A stretch of DNA of 64,000 bases from Gammaproteobacteria bacterium. GTDB lineage: Bacteria; Pseudomonadota; Gammaproteobacteria; CAKMZV01. Shown here in pieces: positions 4,996 through 21,447 of the stretch (position 1 is the stretch's first letter; the number at the start of each line of letters is the position of its first letter). Location: the NCBI GenBank assembly GCA_965277625.1, contig OZ255827.1:1544550-1608549 (forward strand), in the 5' to 3' direction. Under the pieces are notes generated by a model that searched no databases, was not told where the DNA came from, and saw only the letters and a list, made by a program, of their open reading frames with translations. The position numbers and the translations under genes are program-made.

Positions 4996-5001
4996 CGACC
5001 T

Positions 5002-6030
5002 GTGTTAGAAATTAACCCACAACAACAGCACACTTGCACTCAATTAACAAACCATATTTTGGCGTTGATTGAAACCCATGGTGCCATCAATTTTTGTGCG
5101 TTCATGCAGCTGGCCTTGTACCATCCTCAATGGGGATACTATTACAGCGATATTGAAAAAATTGGACCAGCAGGAGATTTCACAACAGCCCCAGAAATCA
5201 GTCCCATATTCGCCCATTGCCTTGCTCAATATCTTAAGCAACACTATCCAGATTTAAAAGACTACCATCTGTTAGAAATCGGCGCTGGCAAAGGGGGCTT
5301 AGCCAAAAATTTGCTTGAGATCATTCACCCAGCCGCCTACGAAATATTAGAGCTCAATAATGATTTTCGCCAACAGCCACATGCTGACCCAGCTTGTATT
5401 TGGTTAGAGGATTTTCCAGCTAAGGCCAATCGTATAATCATTGCCAATGAGGTCCTCGATGCATTTGCAGTGGAGCGATGGATTAAAAAATCCAATGTCT
5501 GGCATTGCGCTTATGTCACCAATGATCACGGAGGTTTAAGTTTACAATGGCAAGCGCGTCCATTGCATCAATCTTTGTGCGATCACTTAATGGACTGGCC
5601 AGAGGATAAGGAATATTTTTACAGTCCGCTGTTGCCTGCTTGGTTGACGGCGCTCACAGATTGTTCAGAAGCCATCATCTTTATGGACTACGGATCTCAT
5701 GTCTCGGAACTTGCTCGTATGAGCACAGGTGGGTTGCGTTGCTATTATCAACATCATCAACACAACCAGCCTTTGTTATATCCCGGGGTGTTTGACATCA
5801 CCGCTGATGTTGATTTTAGTTGGATCCAGGCGCAAACGTCTTGGCAGACTGAAGCCTATTACACCCAATCTCATTTTTTATTGAACCATGGGGTAGGCAC
5901 GATTGATCTAATGAACCTAAGTCCGCAACAACAATTGAAAACAAGCCAAGCGATTAAACACCTGGTTATGCCTGATGCCATGGGTGAAATTTTCAAATTT
6001 TTACACCTCAAACAGCTGTCTGAGTCATAG
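5002..6030 (+). CDS. SAM-dependent methyltransferase, MidA/DUF185 family
   Basis: 342 aa. DFTTAPEISPIFAHCLAQ and LLEIGAGKG motifs of the MidA family. Confidence 0.7.
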   Translation: MLEINPQQQHTCTQLTNHILALIETHGAINFCAFMQLALYHPQWGYYYSDIEKIGPAGDFTTAPEISPIFAHCLAQYLKQHYPDLKDYHLLEIGAGKGGLAKNLLEIIHPAAYEILELNNDFRQQPHADPACIWLEDFPAKANRIIIANEVLDAFAVERWIKKSNVWHCAYVTNDHGGLSLQWQARPLHQSLCDHLMDWPEDKEYFYSPLLPAWLTALTDCSEAIIFMDYGSHVSELARMSTGGLRCYYQHHQHNQPLLYPGVFDITADVDFSWIQAQTSWQTEAYYTQSHFLLNHGVGTIDLMNLSPQQQLKTSQAIKHLVMPDAMGEIFKFLHLKQLSES

Positions 6031-6042
6031 GATTTTGCTCAA

Positions 6043-6441
6043 TCAGCGATGACGGTCGGTGTCGTCGTAATCTGAATGGATGATTTGCACAGAACCCTGC
6101 GCATTTTGTTTAGAGCGTCGATCCATCCGAGCGATGAGCCATTGCCGAATCCAGGGCAATAACAATAAAATGCCCAAAAAATCGCTCATAAAGCCGGGAA
6201 TAATAAGCAAAACGGCTCCTATACTCCGTAGCATAAGATGACGCTCATTGATGGCGTTGTGTGAGATGTTCCAACGTTGCCGAAATTGCGAGAGCAACTC
6301 AATGCTCTGCATTCTTAGGAAAAACATGCCAAACATGCCACTGGCAATAAACTCAAATACTGTGCCTAAAAAGCCAATAGCGTGCCCCACTTCAATCAGC
6401 AACCAAAGCTCAGCGAAGAAGAAAATTAAAATCCGAAACAT
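6043..6441 (-). CDS. fxsA: FxsA family inner-membrane protein
   Basis: FxsA-like hydrophobic N-terminus and a PGF(M/T)SDFLG-like motif. Start taken at MFRIL. Confidence 0.7.
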   Translation of the reverse strand: MFRILIFFFAELWLLIEVGHAIGFLGTVFEFIASGMFGMFFLRMQSIELLSQFRQRWNISHNAINERHLMLRSIGAVLLIIPGFMSDFLGILLLLPWIRQWLIARMDRRSKQNAQGSVQIIHSDYDDTDRHR

Positions 6442-6442
6442 A

Positions 6443-7354
6443 CTATTCAATGATTTTGCCGAAGCGGCTGAAGTCAAAACCGTCTAAGCGGCCATCATAA
6501 TTCATCCAGACAAAAATGGCCTGACCTTTCAAGTATTTGTCAGGCACTAATCCCCATATTCTGCTGTCGCTGCTGTTGTCCCTGTTATCGCCCATCATAA
6601 AGTAATGCCCCTCGGGAACGCTTACCTTTAACCGCCATTGCCCAAAGGCATTGCGTGCCTCTTCAAAGTATTGGCGCTTGGGGAAAGGGTTCTGTATGCG
6701 CATATTTTTTGCCCCTTGGGTTTCATGTAACACCTGGTGTGAGTGCGTCCCTAAATGTTCTGTCACAAGAAAAACCTCATCACCAATATCGTAAGTCTGA
6801 TTGCCCGTATATATTTCTTCGCGTTTAAATTTAATGACTTGACCATTGATGGTTAAACGATGCCCCTCAATCAATATTTCATCACCAGGTAAGCCGATGG
6901 TTCTTTTAATATAATCGGTGCCTGGTTCGTGTGGAAAACGAAACACTACCACATCACCCCGTTCAGGTGTGCCACTACCAATAATACGAGTGCCGACAAT
7001 CGGTAGTCGTAACCCATATTCAAATTTTTTGACCAATACAAAATCACCAATATGTAAGGTTGATTGCATGGATCCTGATGGAATTCTAAAAGGCTCAAAC
7101 AGGAAGAAACGAATCACAAAAACAAACAATAATACTGGGAATAATGAAGCCAGGAATGATAATACTTTTATCGTGCTATTTTGATTACTGTGGTGGTTAT
7201 CGAGAAATAGCATAAAGGCAAACCAAAGTACACCCAAAAACGCAGTGACTAAGGTTAACCAAGCTTCAAATGTACCAAACATCCAGACACCGTAGGCCGA
7301 TAAAGCCCCGAGACTGATGCACACAAAAAAACCCAACCAATAGAGTACTTTCAC
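6443..7354 (-). CDS. lepB: Signal peptidase I
   Basis: 303 aa with S26 peptidase boxes ([18 protein letters not shown]). Downstream of lepA as in the conserved lepA-lepB operon. Confidence 0.9.
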
Positions 7355-9156
7355 GTTTTTTTCCTATCTAATACGGCCATAAAAGCTTCTTGCGGCACTT
7401 CAACACTGCCAATTGATTTCATACGTTTCTTGCCTTTTTTCTGTTTCTCTAATAATTTTTTCTTACGACTAATATCGCCACCGTAGCATTTGGCAGTGAC
7501 ATTTTTTCGCAGGGCTCTGATATTTGAACGCGCAATGATTTTAGCACCAATGGCCGCCTGCAAAGCGATTTCAAACATTTGCCGAGGGATTAAATCTTTG
7601 AGACTTTCAATTAAAGCGCGACTCCTATGGACAGAACGTTCGCGATGCATTAAACACGCCAAAGCATCGACATTTTCACCATTGATTAAAACATCGACCT
7701 TAACCAAATCAGAATGCATATAACCATCTATCTCATAATCCATCGAGGCATAACCTCTGGAACACGATTTAAGCTGTTCAAAAAAATCAACCACGACTTC
7801 ATTCAAAGGCAATCGCCAAATCATTTGAGCTTGTTTGCCCATATAGTTTAAATTTTGTTGAACCCCGCGTTTTTCGATACATAAGGTTATGATGTTGCCA
7901 ATGTACTCTTCTGGGGTGTAGATATTGGCTTTGATCATGGGTTCTTGAATCTCTGCATATTGACCAATATCAGGCATATTTGAGGGATTTTCAACCTCAA
8001 TGGTTGTGCCATTTTTCAATAGGACCTTATACAATACTGTGGGTGATGTGGTTATCAAACTCAAATCATATTCCCGTTCTAAACGCTCTCGTACAATCTC
8101 CATATGTAACATACCGAGAAAACCAATTCTAAAACCAAAACCCAAGGCATCTGAGGTTTCGGGTTCAAATTGCAATGCAGAATCGTTCAAACAAAGCTTT
8201 TCCAAGGCTTCCCTAAAGTCCACATAATCTTCGGTGCTGACGGGGTATAAGCCGGCAAACACACGAGGTTGAATTTGTTTAAAACCCCTTAATGGCTCAA
8301 CACAAGCATTTTTTAAATAGGTTAGGGTATCTCCTACTGGAACACCATGAATGTCTTTAACACCTGCGACTAAGTAACCGACGGCGCCCGCAGACAATTT
8401 TTTTAGAGGTTGGCGTTTGGGGTTGAATAAACCCAACTGTTGAATTTCATAGTCCATACCCGATGATAAGACTTTCATTCTTTGACCCACTTCAAAACAG
8501 CCATCGACGACTCGAATGAGTGAAACCACACCAAGGTAGGGATCAAACCATGAATCGATGATGAGAGCTTTGGGTGCTGAATCGAGATTCCCTTTTGGCG
8601 GCTCAACAAAATCCACAATTTTTTGTAATAATTCTGGCACGCCCTCACCCGTTTTTGCGCTCACAGCAGTGATCTCACTGGTGTCAATACCAATCATATT
8701 TTCAATGTCATCCTTTACCTGCTCAGGATTGGAAGCGGGCAAGTCAATTTTATTAAGCACGGGTAATACTTCAAGACCTTCGTCCATCGCTGCGTAGCAA
8801 TTGGCGATGGTTTGCGCTTCAACCCCCTGTGAGGCGTCAACGATCAACAGCGCTGCTTCACAAGCGGCCAAAGATCGTGAGACCTCATAGGAAAAATCAA
8901 CGTGACCGGGCGTGTCAATAAAATTGAGCTGATAGGCTTGGCCATCTTTGGTTGATTGAAATATAAGAGAGACCGACTGGGCTTTGATGGTGATGCCCCG
9001 CTCTCGCTCAATGTCCAAAGAATCAAGAACCTGCGCCTTCATTTCACGGTCTGCTAAAGCCCCACAATATTGAATGATTCGATCAGACAAGGTTGATTTA
9101 CCATGATCAATGTGCGCAATGATGGAGAAATTTCGTATGAATTTTTGTTCTAACAC
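7351..9156 (-). CDS. lepA: Elongation factor 4
   Basis: 601 aa with GTPase G1 (AHIDHGKST) and LepA-specific C-terminal domain. Confidence 0.95.
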
Positions 9157-9753
9157 AGACTAATGTCCTGAAAGCTATTTGGGTCTTTAATGAGTACGTT
9201 CAAGCGTATTTATATAGGCGCGCTATTGTACTTCAATGACCTTGATTTCACATCACATCTACCCTGAGGTCGCAATTCTTTTTGGACCATCGCTAAACGT
9301 TTAGTCGTACTAAGACACTTTGTAACTTTGATCACTTATACCGCCCATATCATATGGATGTCGTACAGTTTTAAACATCTCCATTTTTTTAATGAGCGAT
9401 TTGATAGACATTTCGTTAAACTTCTTAGTTTTATACATTTATTTTTATAATTTCAATTTTTAGATCTAGCCATATGGTTCCCATCGCGTTTAATTTTAAT
9501 TTGCTACACATTTGTAAAGCAATCTATTTTCAATGAAGCGATTTAAGCAGACTATAGAACGATCGAAAAACGACCATGAGGCTATGCCATTAACTAGAAC
9601 AACATAGAACTTTGGGATTTATCAGGACCAATGACCCTAAAACAGGTTCTGTATGACAATCAAAAGCAACAAAGTTTATAATACCGCGCTTATAAATCAA
9701 AGTTATCGCAATATTCCAATTTATCACCACTTAAAAATTATTATTCTAATCAG

Positions 9754-10617
9754 ATGAAAGGCATTATTCTCGCAGGAGGCACTGGATCTCGACTATTCCC
9801 ATTGACAATGGGCGTCTCTAAACACCTATTTCCCATTTACGACAAGCCCATGATTTATTACCCCTTGTCCGTCCTTATGCTGGCTGATATAAGGGAGATT
9901 TTGATCATCACCACACCAGAAGATCAGGCAAATTATAAACGCCTCCTCGGCAATGGTAAACAATGGGGGATTAGCATTGAATATTGTATTCAAACAAAAC
10001 CCAAGGGATTGGCAGAAGCTTTTATTTTGGGAAAATCTTTTATTGGTCAGGATTCAGTATGTCTCGTATTAGGTGATAATGTTTTCTGGGGTCATACCTT
10101 TTCTGCAAAATTACAAAAAGCCAGAGAAATTAAGGACGGTGCTGTCATTTTTGGCTATCAAGTCATTGACCCAGAAAGATTTGGCGTGGTAGAATTGGAT
10201 CGAGATGGATATGCAATCTCATTAGCAGAAAAGCCCAAAAAACCAAAATCAAATTTAGCCGTCACGGGTCTGTATTTTTATGATAATGATGTTATTAATA
10301 TCGCCCACGACATTCAACCCTCTGATCGTGGTGAACTCGAGATTACGTCAATTAATGAACACTATTTGAATCACAAGAAATTACACGTTGAAATCTTAAG
10401 TAGAGGGTTTGCTTGGTTAGATACTGGGACGCATTCCAGTTTATTAGATGCTTCAAAGTTTGTTGAAACCATAGAGAAACAGCAAGGTTATAAAATCGCT
10501 TGCCTTGAGGAAATTGCTTGGTTAAAGAAATGGATAAATACCAATCAATTACAACAGGAGGCCTTAAAATATACCAATAATAACTATGGTCAATATCTGC
10601 TCCGACTCATCAATTAA
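9754..10617 (+). CDS. rmlA: Glucose-1-phosphate thymidylyltransferase
   Basis: 287 aa. MKGIILAGGTGSRLFPLT...KQLLPIYDKPMIYY signature of RmlA. Confidence 0.9.
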   Translation: MKGIILAGGTGSRLFPLTMGVSKHLFPIYDKPMIYYPLSVLMLADIREILIITTPEDQANYKRLLGNGKQWGISIEYCIQTKPKGLAEAFILGKSFIGQDSVCLVLGDNVFWGHTFSAKLQKAREIKDGAVIFGYQVIDPERFGVVELDRDGYAISLAEKPKKPKSNLAVTGLYFYDNDVINIAHDIQPSDRGELEITSINEHYLNHKKLHVEILSRGFAWLDTGTHSSLLDASKFVETIEKQQGYKIACLEEIAWLKKWINTNQLQQEALKYTNNNYGQYLLRLIN

Positions 10618-10787
10618 ATAAGGCTACTAAGTCTAAAATACCGTATGGCTAAAACGATTTCAAACACAAGGGCTGGAGACGATATTGGTAAAGCGAACAC
10701 CTATTCTACTAGTATGTGGTGGATACATCATTCATGCTGTTGATCATTTTTTAAATTATGACAACAATCAAACTCTCGATATAGAAA

Positions 10788-11936
10788 ATGAATAAAGCAA
10801 TAAAATTTAATCAGCCCTATATAACTGGCAAAGAACTTGAATTAATAAACGATGTTTTTGCTCGAAATCAGTTCAGTGGTAATGGTTACTACACTCAAGC
10901 ATGCCAACAAAAAATCAAAGAAATTTTGGACGTTGAAAATGTGCTGTTAACCGACAGTTGCACGTCAGCTTTAGAAATATCAGCCCTGTTGCTTAGAAAA
11001 TGGCATGTAAAACAACAAATAATTTTGCCATCCTATACCTTTTCATCAACGGCTGCTGCGTTTGCACGTTGTGGTTTTGAAATAGTTTTTGCCGAGATTG
11101 AACCGCATACCATGATGATTGACATTGAGGATGTTAAACATAAGATTACCCCACATACTGCTGCCATTGTCATAGTGCACTACGCTGGATTTTGTGCTGA
11201 TTCAGCCAAATATAGAAAATTGTGCGATGATAACGGACTCTATTTGATTGAAGATGCTGCCCAAGCTTTTGGAAGTCGTAAAAATGACGAACCCATAGGC
11301 CGTGATGGTGATCTAAGCTGTTATTCATTCCACGAAACCAAAAATCTACACGCAGGATTGGCTGGTGCATTGGTGATCAATAATCATTCTTTTTTTGATA
11401 GAGCTTGTCATATGTGGGAAAGAGGCACAAACCGACAAGAAGTTTTAAAAGGGTTGATCGATAAATATTCTTGGGTCGAAATTGGCGGCAGTTTTTATCC
11501 AACTGAACTTCAAGCAGCTTTTTTATTGGCCCAACTGGATCATTTTCTTGAAAATTTATTGCAAAGAAAAAATCTATTTATGGGTTACTACAACTATTTT
11601 TGCAGCAAAAATTATTCAGATGTAAATTTTCCTCTTATACAAGATGATTTTCAAACAAACTACCATGCCTTTTGGCTAACTTTTAGGTCTGAGGCAGAAT
11701 GCGATTATGTTCGGAAGACCCTGTCTAAACAAAGCATATCTGCCTATATCGGTTATGTGCCACTCCATTCATCCCAAGTGGGGTTACAAATGAATTATCA
11801 ACCTGACGATCTTCCTTTAACGGAAGCATTTGCCAAAAAAATTCTAAGGCTTCCCATGCATAACAATATGAGTCAGAAAGATGTTGACAGCATTTGTACG
11901 AATATCAATCAAGCTTTAACACAATACCGAAAATAA
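10788..11936 (+). CDS. DegT/DnrJ/EryC1/StrS family sugar aminotransferase (WecE/ArnB-like, dTDP-4-keto-6-deoxyhexose aminotransferase)
   Basis: 382 aa. Collinear with E. coli WecE (SCTSALE, PSYTFxST, FSFHETKN, WxExG). Confidence 0.85.
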   Translation: MNKAIKFNQPYITGKELELINDVFARNQFSGNGYYTQACQQKIKEILDVENVLLTDSCTSALEISALLLRKWHVKQQIILPSYTFSSTAAAFARCGFEIVFAEIEPHTMMIDIEDVKHKITPHTAAIVIVHYAGFCADSAKYRKLCDDNGLYLIEDAAQAFGSRKNDEPIGRDGDLSCYSFHETKNLHAGLAGALVINNHSFFDRACHMWERGTNRQEVLKGLIDKYSWVEIGGSFYPTELQAAFLLAQLDHFLENLLQRKNLFMGYYNYFCSKNYSDVNFPLIQDDFQTNYHAFWLTFRSEAECDYVRKTLSKQSISAYIGYVPLHSSQVGLQMNYQPDDLPLTEAFAKKILRLPMHNNMSQKDVDSICTNINQALTQYRK

Positions 11937-11945
11937 AGAGATAAC

Positions 11946-12719
11946 ATGACCTCTTTTAACACAGCAAAATACGAAGTACAACAACTGCTCAACAAGATCT
12001 CTAAGACGGTTGAAGATGATCTACGACTTGAAGCCATTGTTGAAAGTATTAAAGACTGGTCTGAAATTGAATCCATTGCTTCAATTGAGCAGTGGTTTAT
12101 TGAACAGCAGGAACAGTGTTCAATGGTTTTAGAAGACATTCCAATAACGGAATGTAGAGGATGGTCGCTGAACCCAAAAAGTGGATTCGTTGAGCACGAC
12201 AGTGGTGAATTTTTCTATGTCCAAGGCATACGAATAAAACACTCCAAAAGTCGTGAAGTGACAGAGGGATGGGATCAGCCTATGTTAACTCAAGTGGGTT
12301 ATAACGGTGGCATTGTCGGCGTCATCAGAACCAAAATAAACGAAATACCTTATTACCTTGTGCAAGCCAAAGCCGAACCAGGCAATCCAGATAAAGTTCA
12401 AATCAGCCCTGCCCTGCAAGCAACATTCAGTAATATCAAAAAATCTCATGGGGGCAGTAATCCGCTTTTTCATGAATATTTTGAATTCCCTGATCAAAAT
12501 AATGCCACAGTATTATTCAACCAGTGGATGTCTGAAGATGGTGGACGATTACATTTAAAATGTAACAGAGGGATGATCGTCGAAATACTTTCTGAGGCAA
12601 TAACAAGTTTAGAAATACCGCCTTCTTTTAAATGGCTTTCATTGTTCCAAATCAAACACCTCATAAAAAATAGCAGCTGGGTGAATCCTCACGTTAGAGG
12701 CATCATTTCTCACCTATAA
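11946..12719 (+). CDS. Single-domain NDP-hexose 2,3-dehydratase-like protein (putative)
   Basis: 257 aa. FFYVQGIRIKH...GWDQPMLTQ...GGIVGVI...YYLVQAKAEPGN resembles one repeat of the EvaA/TylX3 Hexose_dehydrat domain. Recognition is from memory of the family motif, so it is tentative. Confidence 0.4.
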   Translation: MTSFNTAKYEVQQLLNKISKTVEDDLRLEAIVESIKDWSEIESIASIEQWFIEQQEQCSMVLEDIPITECRGWSLNPKSGFVEHDSGEFFYVQGIRIKHSKSREVTEGWDQPMLTQVGYNGGIVGVIRTKINEIPYYLVQAKAEPGNPDKVQISPALQATFSNIKKSHGGSNPLFHEYFEFPDQNNATVLFNQWMSEDGGRLHLKCNRGMIVEILSEAITSLEIPPSFKWLSLFQIKHLIKNSSWVNPHVRGIISHL

Positions 12720-12731
12720 AGATACTCCATC

Positions 12732-13682
12732 ATGAATTTGGCAGTTTGGTCTATAGGCAGTCACGCGAGAAAAAATATTCTCCCTGCTGTCATAAAATCT
12801 AAAAAAGTCAATCTCAAAGGTTTATTGACTCGACACACAAAACTCGGTGAAGACCTCTGTGCGGATTATCAGTGTGTTCAATACTCGTCAGCCGAAGCTT
12901 TACTACAATCACCAGACATTGATATCATTCATATTTGTAGCCCAAACGGGATTCATTTTGAACAAGCAAAAGCTTGTATTGAGCATGGTAAACATATCAT
13001 TGTCGAAAAAAGAGCCTTTTCTACATTGGAACAGTCCTATGAAATTGCAAATCTTGCCAAAGCGCAAAAGGTTTTAGTATTTGAAGCATTTATGTATCAA
13101 TATCATGCCCAATTTAAGCAATTAAAAAAATTGCTGGCAGAAAAAAAATATGGTGCCATAAGATCCATTTACGCATCTTTTGGTTTTCCATACTTACCAA
13201 AAAATAGTGTTCGACATTCAAAGAAACTCGATGGTGGTGCCTTAGGTGATGCAGGTGTTTATCCCATTTCAGCAATCTTGGCTTTAATGGGAAATGATGT
13301 GGATTTGGTTTATTCGACGATGAATTTTGAAAAAGATTTTGAAGTTGATACCTCTGGCTTAGCGGTGTTTAAAAACAAAGGCCAAAAAGGCATTTGCCAA
13401 TGGATATTTGGAGGCAGTTATAAAAACGCCATTGAAATTTGGTGTGAAAATGGCCATATTTATGTCGATCGAGCCTTTTCCAAAACCGAACAATTCCCTA
13501 CAAGCCTCTCAATTCATCACAATGGCGAAATCATTGAAACCATAAACTCTGGAGAAGACAATCATTTTACAAACATGTACGATCATTGCTACGATTTAAT
13601 TAATGAAGAACAATATGAATCATCCATTGAATCGCTGATTTTACAATCTGAAATCGTAGAAAAAATTCGCTTAAAACAATGA
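12732..13682 (+). CDS. Gfo/Idh/MocA family oxidoreductase (candidate NDP-sugar ketoreductase, KijD10-like)
   Basis: 316 aa. N-terminal Rossmann fold and IHICSPNGIHFEQAKACIEHGKHIIVEK consensus (EKP-like motif). Confidence 0.75.
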   Translation: MNLAVWSIGSHARKNILPAVIKSKKVNLKGLLTRHTKLGEDLCADYQCVQYSSAEALLQSPDIDIIHICSPNGIHFEQAKACIEHGKHIIVEKRAFSTLEQSYEIANLAKAQKVLVFEAFMYQYHAQFKQLKKLLAEKKYGAIRSIYASFGFPYLPKNSVRHSKKLDGGALGDAGVYPISAILALMGNDVDLVYSTMNFEKDFEVDTSGLAVFKNKGQKGICQWIFGGSYKNAIEIWCENGHIYVDRAFSKTEQFPTSLSIHHNGEIIETINSGEDNHFTNMYDHCYDLINEEQYESSIESLILQSEIVEKIRLKQ

Positions 13683-14626
13683 TCAGTTTTGTTATTCCCG
13701 TTTATTTCACGTCTCCTTCAGAGTCTGGGTTGACAAAGTTGATCGACAGAATCACTGCGATTTGTGAACAAATAGATTCGTCTTTTGAAATCATTTTGGT
13801 GGACGATGCTTGCCCATCAAATTCTTGGGATCATATTCAGAAACTGTGTGTCAAAATGCCTGCCATAGTCAAAGGCATCAAACACAGTCGAAATTTTGGT
13901 CAACAAAATGCCATTACTACTGGACTTTCCATGAGTAGTGGTGAGTGGATGGTCGTTATGGATTGTGATTTTCAAGATGACCCTGAAGCCATCTTCGATC
14001 TCTGGGCAAAAAAAAATGAAGGCTTTGATTATGTTGTTATCTCACGTTTTAATCGTCAAGATTCATTTTTAAAAAAATCAACCTCTTATCTCTTTTGGCG
14101 ATTATTCTCATTTTTAACCAATACAACGCTAGATGGTTCTGTTGCAAACTATGGCATCTATAACCGTAAAGTCATCAATGCTTATTTATCTATCAATGAT
14201 CAAATAAAATCTTTTCCAGCCCACGTTAATTGGTTAGGATTCAATAGGGCAACCATAGAATATCAGCACCAACCGAGATTGAGCGGCAAATCATCTTATA
14301 GCATTGCCAAAATGTTCATATTAGCAACCAATACCATACTGAATTTTTCTGACAGACCCTTGTGGCTAATTGCACAAACAGGGCTTTGGATCTCTGCACT
14401 CAGCATATTGACCGCTTTGTGTTTTTTTATAGGCGCTTTATTGGACATATTTGTGGTTCAAGGCTGGGCGGGTATTATTGTGTCCATTTGGTTATTCTCA
14501 GGCTTAATCATTTTTTTACTTGGGATAATAGGACTCTACGTTTCCAAAACATTTGAGCAAACCAAAAACCGCCCCACAGCCATTATTTCAGAAAAAATTG
14601 GCTTTGAACGAGAAGAACTAAAATGA
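13679..14626 (+). CDS. GT2 polyprenyl-phosphate glycosyltransferase (ArnC/GtrB-like)
   Basis: 315 aa. ISFVIPVYF...ILVDDAC...NFGQQNA...VVMDCDFQDDP with two C-terminal transmembrane helices, the ArnC/GtrB architecture. Confidence 0.8.
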   Translation: MISFVIPVYFTSPSESGLTKLIDRITAICEQIDSSFEIILVDDACPSNSWDHIQKLCVKMPAIVKGIKHSRNFGQQNAITTGLSMSSGEWMVVMDCDFQDDPEAIFDLWAKKNEGFDYVVISRFNRQDSFLKKSTSYLFWRLFSFLTNTTLDGSVANYGIYNRKVINAYLSINDQIKSFPAHVNWLGFNRATIEYQHQPRLSGKSSYSIAKMFILATNTILNFSDRPLWLIAQTGLWISALSILTALCFFIGALLDIFVVQGWAGIIVSIWLFSGLIIFLLGIIGLYVSKTFEQTKNRPTAIISEKIGFEREELK

Positions 14627-14991
14627 ATTATTTATATATTTTAGGTTGTATAATCTTCACCGTTTATGGGCAGTTAATCATTAAACATAGACTGGCATCT
14701 CATCCACCCTTACCTGGTGATTTCTCTGAAAAGATGATTGCAGTCATCAAGTTGCTTTTTGACCCCTTTATTGCCTCAGGTCTATTTGCTGCATTCATAG
14801 CTGCGCTTCTGTGGATCGTTGCCCTCTCAAAATTTGAATTGAGCTTTGCTTATCCCATGATGAGTTTCTCTTTCGTGTTAGTCAGCATATTCTCGTTCTT
14901 ACTATTCAATGAGGTAATGAGCGTGTATAAAATTTTAGGATTAATACTAATCATGTCAGGTATTTTTATTCTGAATTTGCATGCTAAATGA
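14623..14991 (+). CDS. ArnE/ArnF-like (EamA/SMR-type) small 4-TM flippase subunit
   Basis: 122 aa. Alignable by eye to E. coli ArnF (IFTVYGQLIIKHRLASHPP vs IASVAQLSLGFAASHLPP; AYPMMSFSFVLVSI...IMSGIFIL). Confidence 0.6.
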   Translation: MNYLYILGCIIFTVYGQLIIKHRLASHPPLPGDFSEKMIAVIKLLFDPFIASGLFAAFIAALLWIVALSKFELSFAYPMMSFSFVLVSIFSFLLFNEVMSVYKILGLILIMSGIFILNLHAK

Positions 14992-16385
14992 GCATAACTT
15001 TTCCTTCTTTAACCGTTATTGATTGGGTACTAACTGCCCTCATATTAGCCATTATTTGTTGTGCCATTTATCTTTTTGGCAACTATTGCACCCACTGCAT
15101 TGATCAGGCTTGGACTGCATCTTTTGGTCTCAATTTTATTCAAAACCAAACCTATGTTGAAGACTTAACCTTTGCAAATTCTGCAGGAGATTTTCGTTTT
15201 TTTGGGATGACACTTGCATATGTCAATGGCAAGTTAGCATCAACATTTAGTACCCATCCCTACTTTTTTGCTTTAATTTCAACTTGTTTTACACTGCTTT
15301 CCAACGTTTTTTGGTATTTTGGTTTTAAACGATTATTTAATCGAAACATCGCTTTATTTACAACCTTATGCCTGTTTATTGCCACCACAAGTTTTGGTGT
15401 TAGCCAAATTAATCGTCCTGAAGCGCTTTTGTTTCTTCTCTGCTCAGTCAGCTTCTGTTGTGCCAGTTATCGCTATTATTTCATTGCGGCGATTTTAGCA
15501 GGCATTTGTATTGAAATTCATCCCATGGGGTTCATCTGCTTCATTTATTTGACTGGCGTATTACTCATTTCTGATGATCGTAAGCATATTAAACATTGGT
15601 TGGCTATAGGGATTGCTGGTTTGATTGGACTGGGGTATTTTCTGCTCCTTCATCATCCCTATTTAGAACTTTATCAAACTATTTTAAGTCAAGCACGAGG
15701 TGCAAATTTTATTCAAAATAATTTCATTTTGGCTTATTTTTTTGATGTCAGATATTTTAAAAATGTCCCCGAAGCCTTTCTTTTAATTGCGATGATTGTT
15801 GTCACACTAATCAAAAAAAATGCTTTCTCCAATACAGCTGTACGTCTTAGCCTATTATGGTTAATAGCCATTTTGTTGTTTTCCTTATTGATTGGCAGAG
15901 GCAATACGCAGTATGGTATTTATTTATTACCACCGCTATTCCTACTCTCTGTCGCACAACTTCATCAATGGAAGACGTTCAAACCGATCATTGTGCTAAT
16001 CGTTGTTTATTACTTACTGCAATATATGGCTTTAATTTATATTAATGGCCATTTTAGAATGCATCAATACCATAATCAAATCAATCAACACCTCCCAAAA
16101 AAGTCAGAGGGGACCATTTATTTAGGGCATTCTAATCACTGGTTTACATTTAATAACGACCCCGACCGCCAGTTTTACACCGTCCAAGAGAATGATTTAA
16201 AATTTCTTAAAAATCAAAGATTTATCTGGATTCGCGACAACATTTGGGAACCAATTAACGCCCAACCGACAACTGAATTTCAAAAGTTGGCTAAAAAATG
16301 TCCAATGAAATTGCTAAGCCATTTCGATTACGGTCGGCATTCAGTACGATTTGAGCAATATGATTGCCGTAAAATTGCACCTTAA
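14988..16385 (+). CDS. Polytopic membrane protein, putative GT-C glycosyltransferase (ArnT/Gtr-type-like)
   Basis: 465 aa with ~11 predicted TM helices, acidic residues in the first extracytoplasmic loop (YVEDL) and a ~90-aa soluble C-terminal tail. Gene position matches arnC-arnE/F-arnT or gtrB-gtrA-gtr(type) logic. Confidence 0.4.
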   Translation: MSITFPSLTVIDWVLTALILAIICCAIYLFGNYCTHCIDQAWTASFGLNFIQNQTYVEDLTFANSAGDFRFFGMTLAYVNGKLASTFSTHPYFFALISTCFTLLSNVFWYFGFKRLFNRNIALFTTLCLFIATTSFGVSQINRPEALLFLLCSVSFCCASYRYYFIAAILAGICIEIHPMGFICFIYLTGVLLISDDRKHIKHWLAIGIAGLIGLGYFLLLHHPYLELYQTILSQARGANFIQNNFILAYFFDVRYFKNVPEAFLLIAMIVVTLIKKNAFSNTAVRLSLLWLIAILLFSLLIGRGNTQYGIYLLPPLFLLSVAQLHQWKTFKPIIVLIVVYYLLQYMALIYINGHFRMHQYHNQINQHLPKKSEGTIYLGHSNHWFTFNNDPDRQFYTVQENDLKFLKNQRFIWIRDNIWEPINAQPTTEFQKLAKKCPMKLLSHFDYGRHSVRFEQYDCRKIAP

Positions 16386-16514
16386 ATTACCCTGCTGTCT
16401 TGAAAATTAAATAAAAAATAATCCACAACTGTGGGAAATTTTATAGAAAACGTAAATCTTATTGTAAAAAACCGCCTAAATAAATCATCCATAAACAATC
16501 TATTGAGAAAATAT

Positions 16515-17540
16515 ATGAATACCACTGACGCCGCTTTAACATCTAATACTCCGCCTTTACTAAACAAAATTTCATCAGTGATTGGGTTAATCGTGCCAAT
16601 CGCTAGCTTTTTTCTATTGTCAAAAACCTTAAGTCCCCCTGCATTATGGGTGATGATGGGTGTATTACTCGGATTGCCCAGTGGTTTGAGCTTATTCATG
16701 CCCCGTTTTAATAAATGGGCGCAACTCTCAAGTACCATTGCCCTCATTGCTATTGTTGTCATTGCATCTGCAGACTTATGGCATGCATTATTGAATCAAG
16801 TACAAGCCGATCTATCGTTTCAACTATTGAGTCTCATATTGGCTTTGCTCATTGCTGCTGTATTGCAATTAACGCAGTTGCTGTATAGTGTGACCGAAGA
16901 TGAAATGAAGGTTCACGATCTAACCGATAAGGCTTTAAGTGGTCCGTCATTGGTCATAAGTTTCAGCATTGGTCTGATTCTGACTTCTTTGATGCTATCT
17001 TGGATGCAGACGACGGAAATCGCGCTCATGTCCAGTATTTCTCCAAAATTTTTAACCCGCGGCGTTATCCCACCACTGACCCTCACCTTGTTTTTCTGGG
17101 GCGCCTTATTGTTATTCGGTAAATGGCTCAAAATGCTGATTCAAGTCAAGCATAGTGATAGTGCCCGTTCTCACTTCAACACAGCGCATCAAAAAACTGA
17201 CACTTCAGTTAAAAAACAAGATGAATTCTTTCAACTAATCTGGCAACAATTTGAGGCTTCTTACACCCTTCCTCGATACATCAATTGGGCCATTCCCATA
17301 CTTGGGTTTATTGGCACAGTTTTGGGCATTTCTCTTGCAACAGAGGGTTTGAGTGCCATATTGGCCAATAATGATTCAGAGTTTAATCAGTTGCTCGGTT
17401 CTGCTCTTTCCCCGCTCGGTATCGCCTTTGATACCACTTTAATTGCACTCTCATTATCAATTGCCTTGGCGTTTTCTCAAACCATACTTTATCGCTGGGA
17501 AGAAAAACAATTGCTCATTTTGGAAGAAAAACTTAAATAA
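16515..17540 (+). CDS. MotA/TolQ/ExbB-family proton channel protein
   Basis: C-terminal ILGFIGTVLGI...LGIAFDTTLIALSLSIA matches the ExbB/TolQ TM2-TM3 signature, with extra N-terminal TM helices. ATG at 16515 preferred over the GTG at 16431, which lies inside a promoter-like AT-rich palindrome. Confidence 0.6.
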   Translation: MNTTDAALTSNTPPLLNKISSVIGLIVPIASFFLLSKTLSPPALWVMMGVLLGLPSGLSLFMPRFNKWAQLSSTIALIAIVVIASADLWHALLNQVQADLSFQLLSLILALLIAAVLQLTQLLYSVTEDEMKVHDLTDKALSGPSLVISFSIGLILTSLMLSWMQTTEIALMSSISPKFLTRGVIPPLTLTLFFWGALLLFGKWLKMLIQVKHSDSARSHFNTAHQKTDTSVKKQDEFFQLIWQQFEASYTLPRYINWAIPILGFIGTVLGISLATEGLSAILANNDSEFNQLLGSALSPLGIAFDTTLIALSLSIALAFSQTILYRWEEKQLLILEEKLK

Positions 17541-17543
17541 TCC

Positions 17544-18095
17544 ATGCCCAAAAAGATCCATCGTAAAGGGAAAAGCCTGTTCAATAGTGGCGATATCGAT
17601 GCGCCTATGGTTGAGGTGTTCGGTGGTGCCTTGGCATTGTTGATCATCATTTTTATTTTAATCAATTTGATTGTGACGCAAGACATCCGCGCCATGTTGG
17701 ACCGTTCAACCGAAGACGCCAAATTTAAAGTGTCTTGGCAAAATGGCACCGAAGGTTTGGTGGTTATTTCCTACCCTGACAAGCTGCGCATCATTGAAAC
17801 CAATGAGAGTATCCCCCGCTCTAAAATATGCACACCCAATAACCCTTTCCTGCGCTACGTCGAGAACATCTATAACAATTCGCAGAATCAACAACTGATT
17901 TTTGCCATTTTAGACAATGGGGTGGAAACCATGGCCATTGCTCGCAATTGTATGCGCGCCCGCTGGGCTCAACGGGTCATCAATATTGGTTGGATTATTG
18001 CCAATCAAGACTTGCTGTCCACCGTTCGATTGCAGGATTTACCTGCGCGCATAAAGAAATCGTTAAACTTTAATAAACCACCAACAACGCAATGA
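17544..18095 (+). CDS. ExbD/TolR/MotB-like biopolymer transport protein
   Basis: 183 aa. Short cytoplasmic N-terminus, a single TM (FGGALALLIIIFILINLIV, like ExbD VMLVLLIIFMV), then a periplasmic domain. Confidence 0.5.
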   Translation: MPKKIHRKGKSLFNSGDIDAPMVEVFGGALALLIIIFILINLIVTQDIRAMLDRSTEDAKFKVSWQNGTEGLVVISYPDKLRIIETNESIPRSKICTPNNPFLRYVENIYNNSQNQQLIFAILDNGVETMAIARNCMRARWAQRVINIGWIIANQDLLSTVRLQDLPARIKKSLNFNKPPTTQ

Positions 18096-19882
18096 GTGAG
18101 CGTGTACAGCAACAGAATCAATCTAAATCATTTGGGTTGTTGGGCCAAAGTGGTGTGGCATTGGCTGATATTTTGGCAAACAGCGTTGCAGTGATTCTGA
18201 TCTTAATTGCCGTAACGCTCACCGTTCAACAAAAAAAAGCGCAAGATGAATTAGAACAAAATGCGGACATCACCACTATTTTAGCGAGACAGTTAGCAAC
18301 CAGCGTTGTGTTCAACGATTTGCCAACCAGCCCCCCTGCTCGATTACACGACTATCACTCATGCGAGATTCCGCATGACTGCAATCCCTATTTGTATCCG
18401 ATCATTGAAATGCACGATGGCTATATCCGTATTTTTAATAACAATACCAAAATTTATCGTAATGAACTGCTACGAAAAGAGAATGCCTTTGACTTATACA
18501 TCAAAAATTTACGTCCTGAAGAAATATTAAATTTGCGTTTAGACGTCTATTCTGTGAGTGAATACTACCTGACATTGGGCATTTTGAAAGAACATAATGC
18601 CAGTCCCAGACATTGGCACTACCTTGGTGAAAGTGTGCCACCATTGAAAAATCAAATACTTAATGAAGAACGCATTGCCGGACATCAACAAGACCAAAGT
18701 TCAGAAGGTTTGGATGAGGGTCAAAGCAACAGTGACAGTGAGGGCAGCAATGATTCAGAAAGTTCAAGCCGCTCAAACCAACAAAGCCAGGGTCAAACGC
18801 CTTCACAAATGCCCGAAGGAACCGAATTGGCCGATTCTGAATCTCGGCAGTCTCTGCAGTATGATAGCCTTCTGCCGCCAGCCGATGGCGGGGCATCCAA
18901 TGAAGTCTCTGAAAATGCCCAAGAACAACCTGGCGGACCAACTGAATCCGAATCGTCTCAAAGCAACAAAACTCCCACGACTTTATTTGAAGCCTTAACG
19001 GGTATGATGGCAGAATCTCAAGGCCTTACCCCTCCTGAGCAAAGTGGTCAAGGTTCATCGGGCAAACGATCGATGCGTGTTCACGTCCCCAATGCTGGAA
19101 AATCAACTGGAAACGAAGGCAAATCCTCCGACAGTGTTAATTTACCTGCCGATGAATATCACCGTGTTGTGATTGCCTACATTCTGACAATGCTTGAACA
19201 AGCACACATTCAAAAAACTTTGGCACTCCCTCAAGCGAGAGAATGGCTGGCGCAGCTCGCTCAAAGCCCAGAGAGCATCCAACAACTGCCCTTGTATCCG
19301 CTGATTGATTCATTAGCGATGATCTTTGATCATGGGCATGAAGCCCGATCTTCAACATTGCAAAAAACCGTTATTGACGCAAGCTTGAGAGATAATCAAC
19401 TGCAAATTCCCTATAACGTTGCCTACCCTGCACCTGTTATAAAAACCTATAACACCCCTGTTTGGTTAGACAAACTGACTCAAGCCCAAAACGTTCAACC
19501 AGCGTTGTTAATGCGACTGTATCCCAGTCTATTTAAAGGCGAAGTTTTAGAATTTCCCGAAGGTTATACGGTTATTGTCCATCCTGATGAAGCTGCTAGA
19601 ACCATTGCTCAATGGCGACCCATTGCTGTACTCGATGCCCAATTAAATGACATCAGTTTAGGATTTGTTTATGCCTCAATAGCCAATGAGCAACTGGTGA
19701 TTCACGCAGGCGAAAACCAATTGTTATTGAATAAATTTCCCATTTCAGATCCACAAATCAGTGCCAAAGACAACACCGAAATTCTCACGCCCATACTATG
19801 GCTGTTTGGATTATTTACCCTCTTGGTATTACTGTCAAGAATGCGTATTCGAACTCGACGAGAATCCCTCAAATCCATTTAG
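18092..19882 (+). CDS. ExbD/TolR-like protein with long acidic low-complexity extension and C-terminal TM anchor
   Basis: 596 aa. N-terminal ExbD-like TM (ADILANSVAVILILIAVTL), an ExbD-like domain, then ~200 aa of S/E/Q/D-rich low-complexity sequence, a C-terminal globular part and a terminal hydrophobic helix. Confidence 0.4.
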   Translation: MSERVQQQNQSKSFGLLGQSGVALADILANSVAVILILIAVTLTVQQKKAQDELEQNADITTILARQLATSVVFNDLPTSPPARLHDYHSCEIPHDCNPYLYPIIEMHDGYIRIFNNNTKIYRNELLRKENAFDLYIKNLRPEEILNLRLDVYSVSEYYLTLGILKEHNASPRHWHYLGESVPPLKNQILNEERIAGHQQDQSSEGLDEGQSNSDSEGSNDSESSSRSNQQSQGQTPSQMPEGTELADSESRQSLQYDSLLPPADGGASNEVSENAQEQPGGPTESESSQSNKTPTTLFEALTGMMAESQGLTPPEQSGQGSSGKRSMRVHVPNAGKSTGNEGKSSDSVNLPADEYHRVVIAYILTMLEQAHIQKTLALPQAREWLAQLAQSPESIQQLPLYPLIDSLAMIFDHGHEARSSTLQKTVIDASLRDNQLQIPYNVAYPAPVIKTYNTPVWLDKLTQAQNVQPALLMRLYPSLFKGEVLEFPEGYTVIVHPDEAARTIAQWRPIAVLDAQLNDISLGFVYASIANEQLVIHAGENQLLLNKFPISDPQISAKDNTEILTPILWLFGLFTLLVLLSRMRIRTRRESLKSI

Positions 19883-19884
19883 CC

Positions 19885-21447
19885 ATGAGCCAAAATCGCG
19901 TCATTGCCCTCATTCTGTTTATTGTCATTACTTTGGCATTAGTCTGGTGGCGTTGGGTTTATTTGTCCCCGCAGCAACTCGATTTAGTCACCGTTGTTGA
20001 AACAGACCAACCGGCTGTCGTCAGCCCCATGGATGAGGTTCTCAAAAAGCATATCAACTTGCTGACCCATACCCAGACTTTATTGCAGCAATTTAAACGC
20101 CCCAGTGAATCCATCACTTTAAAACCGCTGTGGATTGACCGTTGTGAGGTTACGCAAAGAGACTTTCGCCAATTTGCCACTTGGCGAGCGGCTCAGGTCA
20201 TTCCGCCAAATGCCCATCCAGCAACCCCCCAGCGATGGGCGTATAAAAGTCAATCAGAAAATCATCGCATACTCGGACAACTGAGCATGCCTGCAGGTGG
20301 ATTAAGTTATTTAGATGGTTGGGCGTATTGCCATGCTGCTGGCGGTCGCTTACCAAGCAGTCAGGAGTTTGAAGCAATCAGTGCAGGCAAGGAACAACGT
20401 TTATATCCTTGGGGCAATACACTGGTTGACGATGCTTGGCCCTATAAGGACCCTTCTTTGAACGTTGCCCAAGTGTGCGGTTCGCATCCAGCAACTGATA
20501 CACCCGAAGGCATCCATGATTTAGGCAACAATGTTTTAGAATGGACGACAAACAACGACCAAGCTGTGTTGATGGGTGGCAATGCCTACCATCGCCCTTT
20601 GGCATTAAATGCCATCAACCTTATCAGGCGTTCAGCACCTGTGGATTTTCGTTCGCAATACACAGGTTTTCGTTGCGTCTATGACCGAACCCAACAAGCC
20701 AATTTAGATTCGCTGCCTTTGCCGTGGGGGAGCCAGCCAAAAATTGCCAGTATAGATGCTTCAACATTGACAATCGGTCCACCCAAATCTGCTAAAATTC
20801 CCGCATTATTATTGCATTTAAAGGATGATCAACTCAAATCGATCCAAAACTTTTCCATCATCCCGACACGCTTAAATTTAAAAGTGATGCGTTATGAAGT
20901 CACGGTGGCATCGTACACTAAATTCTTACGCGACCCATTGGTGCGATTCGGTTTTTATAATCACCCACAACAACCCGTCAACATGGCCCATGATCCCGTC
21001 CGATGGGACACACAGCAACAAAATCCAAGTCATCCTGTGACCAACATCACGTGGTGGAATGCCTGGTCATTTGCCAAATGGGTGGGCGGGCGACTGCCAA
21101 CAGCCCCTGAATGGACGGCGCTTGCGGGCGCACATTCCACGCGTTTCCCCTATGGAAACCAATACCAACCCCTAGCCTCTGTGGACAGAAATCGCATAGA
21201 CAGCCAATGGCAATCCTTAGAAGTCATCGCCTCAAATGATGACAGCAAACACGCAATCAAAGGTTTTGCTGGTAATGTTGCCGAATGGACCAGCACATCG
21301 CTATTGCGCGGCAATGCTTTTACCTTGGTCATCAAGGGTGGCAGTTTCTTCATGCCTGAAGAAGGCGGAGAAATCGGTCAAAGTGGCGAAGCACCGCCAA
21401 ATTATAAAAATGCAGACTTGGGTTTCCGGGTGGTTTTTCCGAATTAG
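19885..21447 (+). CDS. Membrane-anchored tandem FGE-sulfatase (SUMF1/EgtB/GldK-like) domain protein
   Basis: Starts 3 nt after the upstream stop. N-terminal TM, then two FGE-like repeats (GGRLPSSQEFE...YPWGN...GNNVLEWT...GFRCVYD and GGRLPTAPEWT...GNVAEWT...GFRVVF). No paired catalytic cysteines seen near the C-terminus of either repeat. Confidence 0.7.
   Translation: MSQNRVIALILFIVITLALVWWRWVYLSPQQLDLVTVVETDQPAVVSPMDEVLKKHINLLTHTQTLLQQFKRPSESITLKPLWIDRCEVTQRDFRQFATWRAAQVIPPNAHPATPQRWAYKSQSENHRILGQLSMPAGGLSYLDGWAYCHAAGGRLPSSQEFEAISAGKEQRLYPWGNTLVDDAWPYKDPSLNVAQVCGSHPATDTPEGIHDLGNNVLEWTTNNDQAVLMGGNAYHRPLALNAINLIRRSAPVDFRSQYTGFRCVYDRTQQANLDSLPLPWGSQPKIASIDASTLTIGPPKSAKIPALLLHLKDDQLKSIQNFSIIPTRLNLKVMRYEVTVASYTKFLRDPLVRFGFYNHPQQPVNMAHDPVRWDTQQQNPSHPVTNITWWNAWSFAKWVGGRLPTAPEWTALAGAHSTRFPYGNQYQPLASVDRNRIDSQWQSLEVIASNDDSKHAIKGFAGNVAEWTSTSLLRGNAFTLVIKGGSFFMPEEGGEIGQSGEAPPNYKNADLGFRVVFPN

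Follow-up and report, generated by a model that had tools for sequence, protein, structure and literature searches.

A half-size homologue of NDP-hexose 2,3-dehydratases in a candidate amino-sugar operon of a gammaproteobacterium

A 64-kb stretch of a gammaproteobacterial chromosome (contig OZ255827.1; "the window" is this whole stretch) contains a gene for a protein related to nucleoside diphosphate (NDP)-hexose 2,3-dehydratases, with one domain in place of the two found in the characterized enzymes. On balance, the evidence favours a functional single-domain sugar 2,3-dehydratase at the centre of a pathway for an amino sugar of the cell envelope. The gene is as follows.

11946..12719, + strand: single-domain (half-size) NDP-hexose 2,3-dehydratase homologue (PF03559, EvaA-like fold)

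The gene starts with ATG, with a Shine-Dalgarno-like AAAGAG motif 6-7 nt 5' of it, and encodes 257 amino acids. The preliminary description of this DNA had proposed an open reading frame of this size, matching only one repeat of the hexose 2,3-dehydratases and lying between an aminotransferase and a reductase, and had named a PF03559 search as a check. The frame was found as described. The protein has a single match to PF03559 (Hexose_dehydrat), in which residues 46-257 cover positions 3-203 of the 203-position profile (score 189.9 bits, cut-off 25, E = 4.6e-56), and both peptides quoted for the repeat are present in the translation (YYLVQAKAEPGN at residues 136-147, GWDQPMLTQ at 108-116). The neighbours were also as claimed: a DegT-family aminotransferase upstream, which passes the NCBIfam model NF008687, and a KijD10-like Gfo/Idh/MocA reductase downstream. 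The half-size protein itself matched no NCBIfam model. A truncated or split gene was rejected as an explanation, as no second copy or segment of PF03559 was found in the whole 64-kb window, the flanking genes are intact and protein length is conserved in the family.

The reference family (EvaA, TylX3, OleV, Gra-orf27 and SpnO; PF03559, EC 4.2.1.159, structures 4J7G/4J7H) has a two-domain layout of about 450-500 amino acids, with pocket A and a remnant pocket B, whereas the window protein has one domain. EvaA (4j7g) is its only real relative among solved structures (E = 1.6e-50), and it aligns with both EvaA halves, giving 106.7 bits with the N-terminal half (N-half) and 66.6 bits with the C-terminal half (C-half). 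Its sequence, fold and catalytic residues place it in the PF03559 superfamily, but it lacks the two-domain layout of the characterized enzymes.

EvaA is a dimer, each subunit of which has two Nudix-like domains (PMC8987622). Its active site is pocket A, in the N-half, where E139 and E190 are essential, while pocket B has been described as an inactive leftover of duplication (PMC8987622). Residues were compared among 137 half-size proteins and the 139 N-halves and 139 C-halves of two-domain enzymes, which comprised EvaA, five reference enzymes of Streptomyces, Nocardiopsis or Kitasatospora from a plasmid collection, and 133 representatives from the database search described below. In the alignment, E139 and E190 of EvaA correspond to E144 and E197 of the window protein, which are 99% conserved in the 137 half-size sequences, and H168 aligns with the invariant His163 of EvaA, so that conservation of the catalytic Glu and His, raised earlier as a point to check, was borne out. 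The half-size clade has in common, at ≥ 94%, 16 of the 19 columns that are invariant in N-halves and not in C-halves, including K142, N147, Q152, A159, T160, S162, N163, H168, G170 and K205. K142, N147, Q158-A-T160, N163, H168 and K205 are invariant in half-size proteins and N-halves and not in C-halves. In EvaA numbering, the N-half invariants that are kept include K137, N142, Q153, T155, N158, H163 and K198.

Residues typical of the C-half are likewise retained. Three of the four columns invariant only in C-halves are exact in the half-size clade (R103, E104 and G200), and at the fourth D198 stands for Glu, a conservative change that keeps the DGGR motif. The half-size chain thus carries the union of the conserved residues of both halves; it merges in one chain N-half- and C-half-specific invariants that EvaA-type enzymes carry in two domains. 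Four invariants (R128, Y137, P248 and H249) are specific to the half-size clade and missing from N-halves. In the two-domain enzymes themselves, R315, E316, W320, Q322, P323, E404, E405, G406, G407 and R408 of EvaA are 93-100% invariant among the 139 C-halves, and these align with window residues R103, E104, W109, Q111, P112 and E197-R201. Such constraint, despite the "remnant" status of pocket B, suggests that the C-half contributes to catalysis or assembly.

A structure prediction, also proposed in the preliminary description, gave a confident fold. The AlphaFold2 model of the half-size protein, built from a 31-sequence family alignment, has a predicted local distance difference test score (pLDDT) of 92.6 and a predicted template-modelling score (pTM) of 0.88. 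Foldseek comparison with the PDB placed EvaA first (4j7h, 4j7g; E = 1e-15, query template-modelling score (TMq) 0.75), followed by NUDT5, the Escherichia coli GDP-mannose hydrolase YffH, NUDT14 and ADP-ribose pyrophosphatases. Each of these latter proteins has a single Nudix domain and functions as a homodimer. NUDT5, YffH and NUDT14 offer a structural precedent for quaternary structure, although they are only 7-13% identical to the window protein and are Nudix-box hydrolases rather than dehydratases. Because of the mosaic of N-half and C-half residues and these homodimeric fold neighbours, we infer that the half-size enzyme is a homodimer (or dimer of dimers) reproducing the pseudo-dimeric EvaA subunit. 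Such a dimer would have two complete active sites, compared with one active and one remnant site in EvaA.

Half-size proteins are numerous. Searched against 5.8 billion proteins, the window protein gave 1540 matches, of which the 120 listed (52-100% identity) are all about 230-280 amino acids long, with 109 of them at 250-259. More than 130 sequences agree in length, start and C-terminus. When 1.84 billion cluster representatives were searched exhaustively with HMMER, 1321 matched at E up to 1e-3, and the best 150 of these include at least 17 single-domain proteins (about 250-264 amino acids when complete) and 133 two-domain proteins. Named carriers of the half-size form are Vibrio mimicus, Brumicola pallidula, Catenovulum sediminis, metagenome-assembled genomes (MAGs) of Phenylobacterium and Syntrophomonadaceae, and many marine metagenomes. 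In a pattern scan of metagenome contigs at least 579 stretches encode a relative (579 of 600 among the matches listed). No similar DNA was found in E. coli complete genomes, and matches in the plasmid collection were almost all two-domain Streptomyces genes. Automatic annotation calls the half-size proteins "NDP-hexose 2,3-dehydratase family protein" or "oxidase EvaA".

With the profile of the half-size family, 131 of 133 two-domain proteins gave a higher score for the N-half than for the C-half (mean 156 vs 93 bits). In an unrooted neighbour-joining tree half-size proteins (bootstrap 0.82), N-halves (0.61) and C-halves (0.88) formed three separate clades, with the half-size clade at a mean distance of 1.34 from the N-halves and 1.80 from the C-halves. 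Loss of a domain from within the N-half clade is not supported by this tree, as the half-size clade is not nested there; since the tree is unrooted, an ancestral single-domain type cannot be told apart from one that arose by early loss.

A sister genome (OZ255843.1), 95-96% identical over window positions 5001-19378, allowed selection to be estimated. The half-size gene differs from its counterpart at 19 synonymous and 5 non-synonymous sites, a ratio of non-synonymous to synonymous polymorphism (pN/pS) of 0.068, which is at the level of rmlA (0.072). The gene is therefore under strong purifying selection and is not degenerate. The preliminary description had allowed for a degenerate or differently functioning protein, and half the canonical length and the lack of an NCBIfam match would suit a remnant or an unrelated function, hydrolytic or regulatory, of a Nudix-like protein. 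Such a reading is nevertheless highly improbable, as it is countered by this low pN/pS, by the conserved ends and length, by 27 invariant columns among 31 family sequences and by the intact set of dehydratase catalytic residues. Because relatives share its length and form a clade of their own, and the gene is under purifying selection, the half-size form is a trait of the family and not a truncation.

The second element of the proposed activity is encoded directly downstream.

12732..13682, + strand: KijD10-like Gfo/Idh/MocA NAD(P)H-dependent sugar 3-ketoreductase (PF01408, PF22725, PDB KijD10)

This protein resembles the C3 ketoreductases of the KijD10/TylC1 type. Its best solved relative is KijD10 (3rbv, "sugar 3-ketoreductase"; E = 1.6e-27), and the Lys of its EK motif and the Tyr of its GVYPI motif align with the same residues in KijD10, where both are reportedly catalytic from structural work. 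Identity to KijD10 is about 30% and the reductase has no NCBIfam equivalog match; the C3 stereochemistry is not predictable. Among 88 related loci examined, 67 had enough sequence to identify the gene downstream of the half-size gene, and in 65 of these it is a Gfo homologue immediately 3'. One of the two exceptions is a MAG in which a 6.6-kb gene for a 2220-amino acid TSP3_bac/DUF4214 protein splits the dehydratase and Gfo genes (locus L009, 10896-17719), which are accompanied there by LuxC/LuxE-like, AMP-binding, FabA-like and NeuB genes.

EvaA-type enzymes share with the half-size form not only the Pfam family, the Nudix-like fold, both essential glutamates and most N-half invariants but also a Gfo/Idh/MocA 3-ketoreductase partner and, in many half-size loci, a dTDP (deoxythymidine diphosphate)-sugar setting with rmlA and rmlB as neighbours, of which the window has rmlA. 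They differ in belonging to a separate clade and to antibiotic gene clusters, whereas half-size genes are found in envelope-glycan loci of Proteobacteria and other non-actinomycetes. We consider it reasonably probable that the half-size gene product is active as a 2,3-dehydratase and acts together with the reductase encoded next to it.

Catalysis by EvaA begins with deprotonation at C3 to an enolate (PMC8987622), a reaction that could in principle be diverted. A half-size enzyme that enolized its substrate without eliminating water would be a 3,4-ketoisomerase or epimerase; the 2-hydroxyl would be kept and an unusual epimer of a 4-amino-4,6-dideoxyhexose would result. The clade-specific R128, Y137, P248 and H249 would allow for a changed reaction, and no 2-deoxy amino sugar was found described for these glycans in the literature searched. 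It is, however, unlikely that elimination has been lost when 16 of 19 N-half-specific invariants, including both essential glutamates, are kept. That a gene for a KijD10-like 3-ketoreductase accompanies the half-size gene in 65 of 67 loci is the signature of two-step C2 deoxygenation, and the reductase needs a 3-keto group while the aminotransferase needs a remaining 4-keto group.

The genes upstream of the dehydratase gene, and a possible start of the operon, are as follows.

9653..9682, + strand: candidate operon promoter, sigma-70-like ATGACA-18-TATAAT (11/12), best match upstream of rmlA
9754..10617, + strand: rmlA, glucose-1-phosphate thymidylyltransferase, which makes dTDP-glucose (TIGR01207, 469.3 bits against a cut-off of 360.65; PF00483)
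10788..11936, + strand: WecE-like pyridoxal phosphate-dependent dTDP-4-keto-sugar C4 aminotransferase of the DegT family (NF008687, PDB WecE)

The number of promoter-like sites around rmlA is not above shuffle expectation. The aminotransferase scored 416.7 against the cut-off of 375 in NF008687 (WecE, dTDP-4-amino-4,6-dideoxygalactose transaminase) and fell below the cut-off of the narrower TIGR02379 (324.9 vs 434.85). Its best PDB matches are to WecE (6blg/4piw, E about 1e-67), with the C3 enzyme QdtB at 1.9e-29. Orthologues of this type (median 52% identity) lie directly 5' of the half-size gene, abutting or overlapping it, in 30 loci. A DegT of another subfamily (21-28% identity to the window enzyme) is encoded downstream or divergently in many metagenome loci (L029, L036, L044-L047, L057, L059, L068, L070, L075, L078, L086, L088-L091), and in L048, L050 and L085 the dehydratase-reductase pair has no DegT gene within 5-10 kb. 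The pair probably feeds several different 2-deoxy sugars across loci. Frequent neighbours in related loci are rmlB-rmlA and genes for N-formyl-, N-acetyl- or ATP-grasp-type acylating enzymes, the last of which fit an amino-sugar product.

Actinomycete pathways often have a DegT-family C3 aminotransferase acting after the 2,3-dehydratase. By this precedent the 3,4-diketo product of an active dehydratase might be aminated at C3 (as by EvaB or DnrJ) and reduced at C4 by the Gfo protein, giving dTDP-3-amino-2,3,6-trideoxyhexose. The other-subfamily DegT genes lend this some weight, and because they occur in so many loci other regiochemistries probably exist in the family. For the window itself C3 amination is improbable: the aminotransferase passes the WecE (C4) model and its strong NCBIfam and PDB relatives are all C4 enzymes, with QdtB far lower, and the solved protein closest to the reductase is a C3 ketoreductase in which the Lys and Tyr are the same. 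The sugar 4-ketoreductases known to us are short-chain dehydrogenase/reductase (SDR) enzymes, whereas the window reductase belongs to Gfo/Idh/MocA.

The pass against the WecE equivalog threshold also bears on whether the aminotransferase and the dehydratase-reductase pair act on one sugar. They might serve two, with dTDP-linked 4-amino-4,6-dideoxygalactose or 4-amino-4,6-dideoxyglucose (dTDP-Fuc4N or dTDP-Qui4N) made for the lipid carrier and a 2,6-dideoxyhexose made separately, an arrangement to which the three loci with the pair and no nearby DegT would correspond. We give this only a small chance in view of the operon, which has a single polyprenyl-phosphate glycosyltransferase of family GT2, no other glycosyltransferase, and genes that overlap or nearly abut. 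Moreover, the WecE-like and dehydratase genes abut or overlap in the 30 loci mentioned, and a Pfam scan found no 4-ketoreductase to finish a non-amino 2,6-dideoxy sugar.

Three further genes, with overlapping starts and stops, follow the reductase gene in the operon.

13679..14626, + strand: ArnC/GtrB/PgfS-like GT2 polyprenyl-phosphate glycosyltransferase (PF00535), its start overlapping the end of the Gfo gene
14623..14991, + strand: ArnE/ArnF-like small EamA/SMR membrane protein of 122 amino acids, candidate flippase for a lipid-linked sugar (PF00892)
14988..16385, + strand: polytopic membrane protein of 465 amino acids, probable GT-C (ArnT/PMT-like) periplasmic glycosyltransferase (sub-threshold PMT_2, low-confidence fold)

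The GT2 protein matched NCBIfam models over its full length, PgfS at 162 bits and ArnC at 139.5 (cut-off 529), both below the equivalog cut-offs. The SMR protein was also below cut-off for ArnF (52.4 vs 99) and ArnE (38.3 vs 92). The GT-C protein matched PMT_2 at E = 8e-4 with a score of 20 (gathering threshold 26.1), and its AlphaFold2 model, from a 6-sequence alignment, has a pLDDT of 58.5; Foldseek placed ArnT first (5ezm, E = 5.9e-4) and then other GT-C enzymes. Its family is tiny, with 5 homologues found in 5.8 billion proteins, and its gene evolves fast, with the highest pN/pS in the operon (0.23). A GT2/SMR(/GT-C) set stands beside the dehydratase module also in V. mimicus, Phenylobacterium, the Syntrophomonadaceae MAG and several metagenome loci, while in other related loci the module lies within Wzx/Wzy- or Wza/Wzz-type polysaccharide clusters. 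Because the operon carries the GT2, SMR and GT-C genes, and by analogy with known systems, the sugar is probably transferred to undecaprenyl phosphate before its attachment in the periplasm.

The closest analogy is the 4-amino-4-deoxy-L-arabinose (L-Ara4N) pathway of ArnB, ArnC, ArnE/F and ArnT. The window operon encodes the same classes of protein (DegT C4 aminotransferase, GT2, SMR and GT-C), and its predicted product would likewise carry a free or acylatable amine. The L-Ara4N pathway, however, starts from UDP (uridine diphosphate)-glucuronate whereas the window route would start from a dTDP-hexose, and the window has one SMR gene only. No ArnA or ArnD domain was detected with Pfam or NCBIfam among the operon genes (9754-16385), and there is no formylation-deformylation cycle in the window. 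As all window scores are below the cut-offs of the Arn equivalog models, the system appears to work like Arn without being a member of it. The WecE/dTDP-Fuc4N pathway of enterobacterial common antigen is a second comparison, since the window aminotransferase passes the WecE model and this pathway also depends on RmlA and RmlB. It differs in that the window enzyme is coupled with a 2-deoxygenation pair, that the window has no WecD acetyltransferase, and that assembly is of the cytoplasmic WecF type, compared with a predicted polyprenyl-monophosphate route in the window.

In the pathway that we favour, RmlA and an RmlB encoded elsewhere would supply dTDP-4-keto-6-deoxy-D-glucose. The half-size enzyme would remove the C3 proton and eliminate the C2 hydroxyl, giving dTDP-3,4-diketo-2,6-dideoxyhexose, which the adjacent KijD10-like reductase would reduce at C3 straight away. 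The WecE-like aminotransferase would then aminate C4 to yield dTDP-4-amino-2,4,6-trideoxyhexose, with stereochemistry at C3 and C4 that is not predictable. From there the ArnC-like GT2 would transfer the sugar to undecaprenyl phosphate, the ArnE/F-like protein would flip it, and the GT-C protein would attach it to a periplasmic acceptor (lipid A, core, another envelope glycan or a protein). There is about an even chance that dTDP-4-amino-2,4,6-trideoxyhexose is the product.

Several observations weigh against this pathway. A tblastn search with two RmlB proteins found no homologue of this 4,6-dehydratase in the 64-kb window, nor did the additional 10 kb of upstream sequence from the sister genome contain one. 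Substrate supply would therefore rely on an RmlB encoded elsewhere in the chromosome of about 2 Mb; rmlA is adjacent in the window and rmlB is adjacent in many relatives' loci. The aminotransferase passes the model of an enzyme that uses an ordinary 2-hydroxy substrate, so that it could make plain dTDP-Fuc4N. The assignment of the GT-C protein combines a sub-threshold Pfam match with a low-confidence model. Lastly, the literature searched contained no description of an envelope glycan of bacteria with a 4-amino-2,4,6-trideoxyhexose.

A literature search for a study of a single-domain 2,3-dehydratase also found none, and its matches concerned 2-acetamido sugars of the AAT (2-acetamido-4-amino-2,4,6-trideoxygalactose) or bacillosamine type, or actinomycete pathways. 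A 2022 review of nucleotide-sugar dehydratases has two-domain EvaA as its only paradigm and lists antibiotic pathways only (PMC8987622). The preliminary description had likewise considered the chemistry atypical of Gram-negative glycans; this did not hold up, as the dehydratase and reductase are common in proteobacterial and marine glycan loci. The distribution of these genes suggests an undescribed 2-deoxy amino sugar as an envelope decoration in many marine and Gram-negative bacteria. C2 deoxygenation of envelope sugars may have been overlooked since the acid steps used in analysing lipopolysaccharide (LPS) destroy 2-deoxy glycosides.

A broader reading joins these points and is tentative, with clearly less than an even chance of being right as a whole. 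It holds that the single-domain enzymes represent the form of EvaA before duplication, or its functional equivalent, and act as two-site homodimers; the invariant Arg-Glu and (D/E)GGR residues in the C-half of two-domain enzymes would then stand for a role supplied in trans to the active pocket. C2 deoxygenation would be widespread in Gram-negative and marine bacteria, and here would serve a new cationic modification, added by an ArnT-like route and comparable to L-Ara4N. To our knowledge EvaA, with one active and one remnant pocket, is the only structural model of sugar 2,3-dehydratases. If the predictions made here hold, a natural single-domain enzyme with both sets of residues makes it possible to test directly the contribution of the second half. 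Although 2,6-dideoxy amino sugars are regarded as building blocks of actinomycete antibiotics, they would then be envelope constituents in many environmental Proteobacteria, which would affect structural work on LPS and capsules and have consequences for serotyping and for phage or immune recognition. Amino-sugar modification of the envelope governs resistance to cationic peptides, and the operon would be a compact seven-gene candidate for a new lipid-carrier-mediated decoration of this kind. The small dehydratase could also serve glyco-engineering of 2-deoxy sugars.

The seven operon genes (9754-16385) have a G+C content of 36-39%, with 0.29-0.39 at third codon positions, compared with 42-48% in the flanking housekeeping genes. 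The operon looks like a horizontally acquired glycan island next to lepA-lepB. In the sister genome an extra segment of about 2.1 kb lies between lepA and rmlA (9470-11558 of locus L097), where the window has only about 290 nt (9239-9531). This segment encodes a second GT-C paralogue (P0293, 469 amino acids, 43% identical to the window GT-C), showing presence or absence of a second periplasmic transferase at strain level. Directly 3' of the operon, at 16431-21447, is a conserved gene set of unknown role that is also present in the sister genome. Its products are a protein weakly matching MotA/ExbB (E = 8e-4), two that lack a Pfam match, one of which has 596 amino acids and a low-complexity middle rich in Ser, Gln and Glu, and a protein with an FGE-sulfatase domain.

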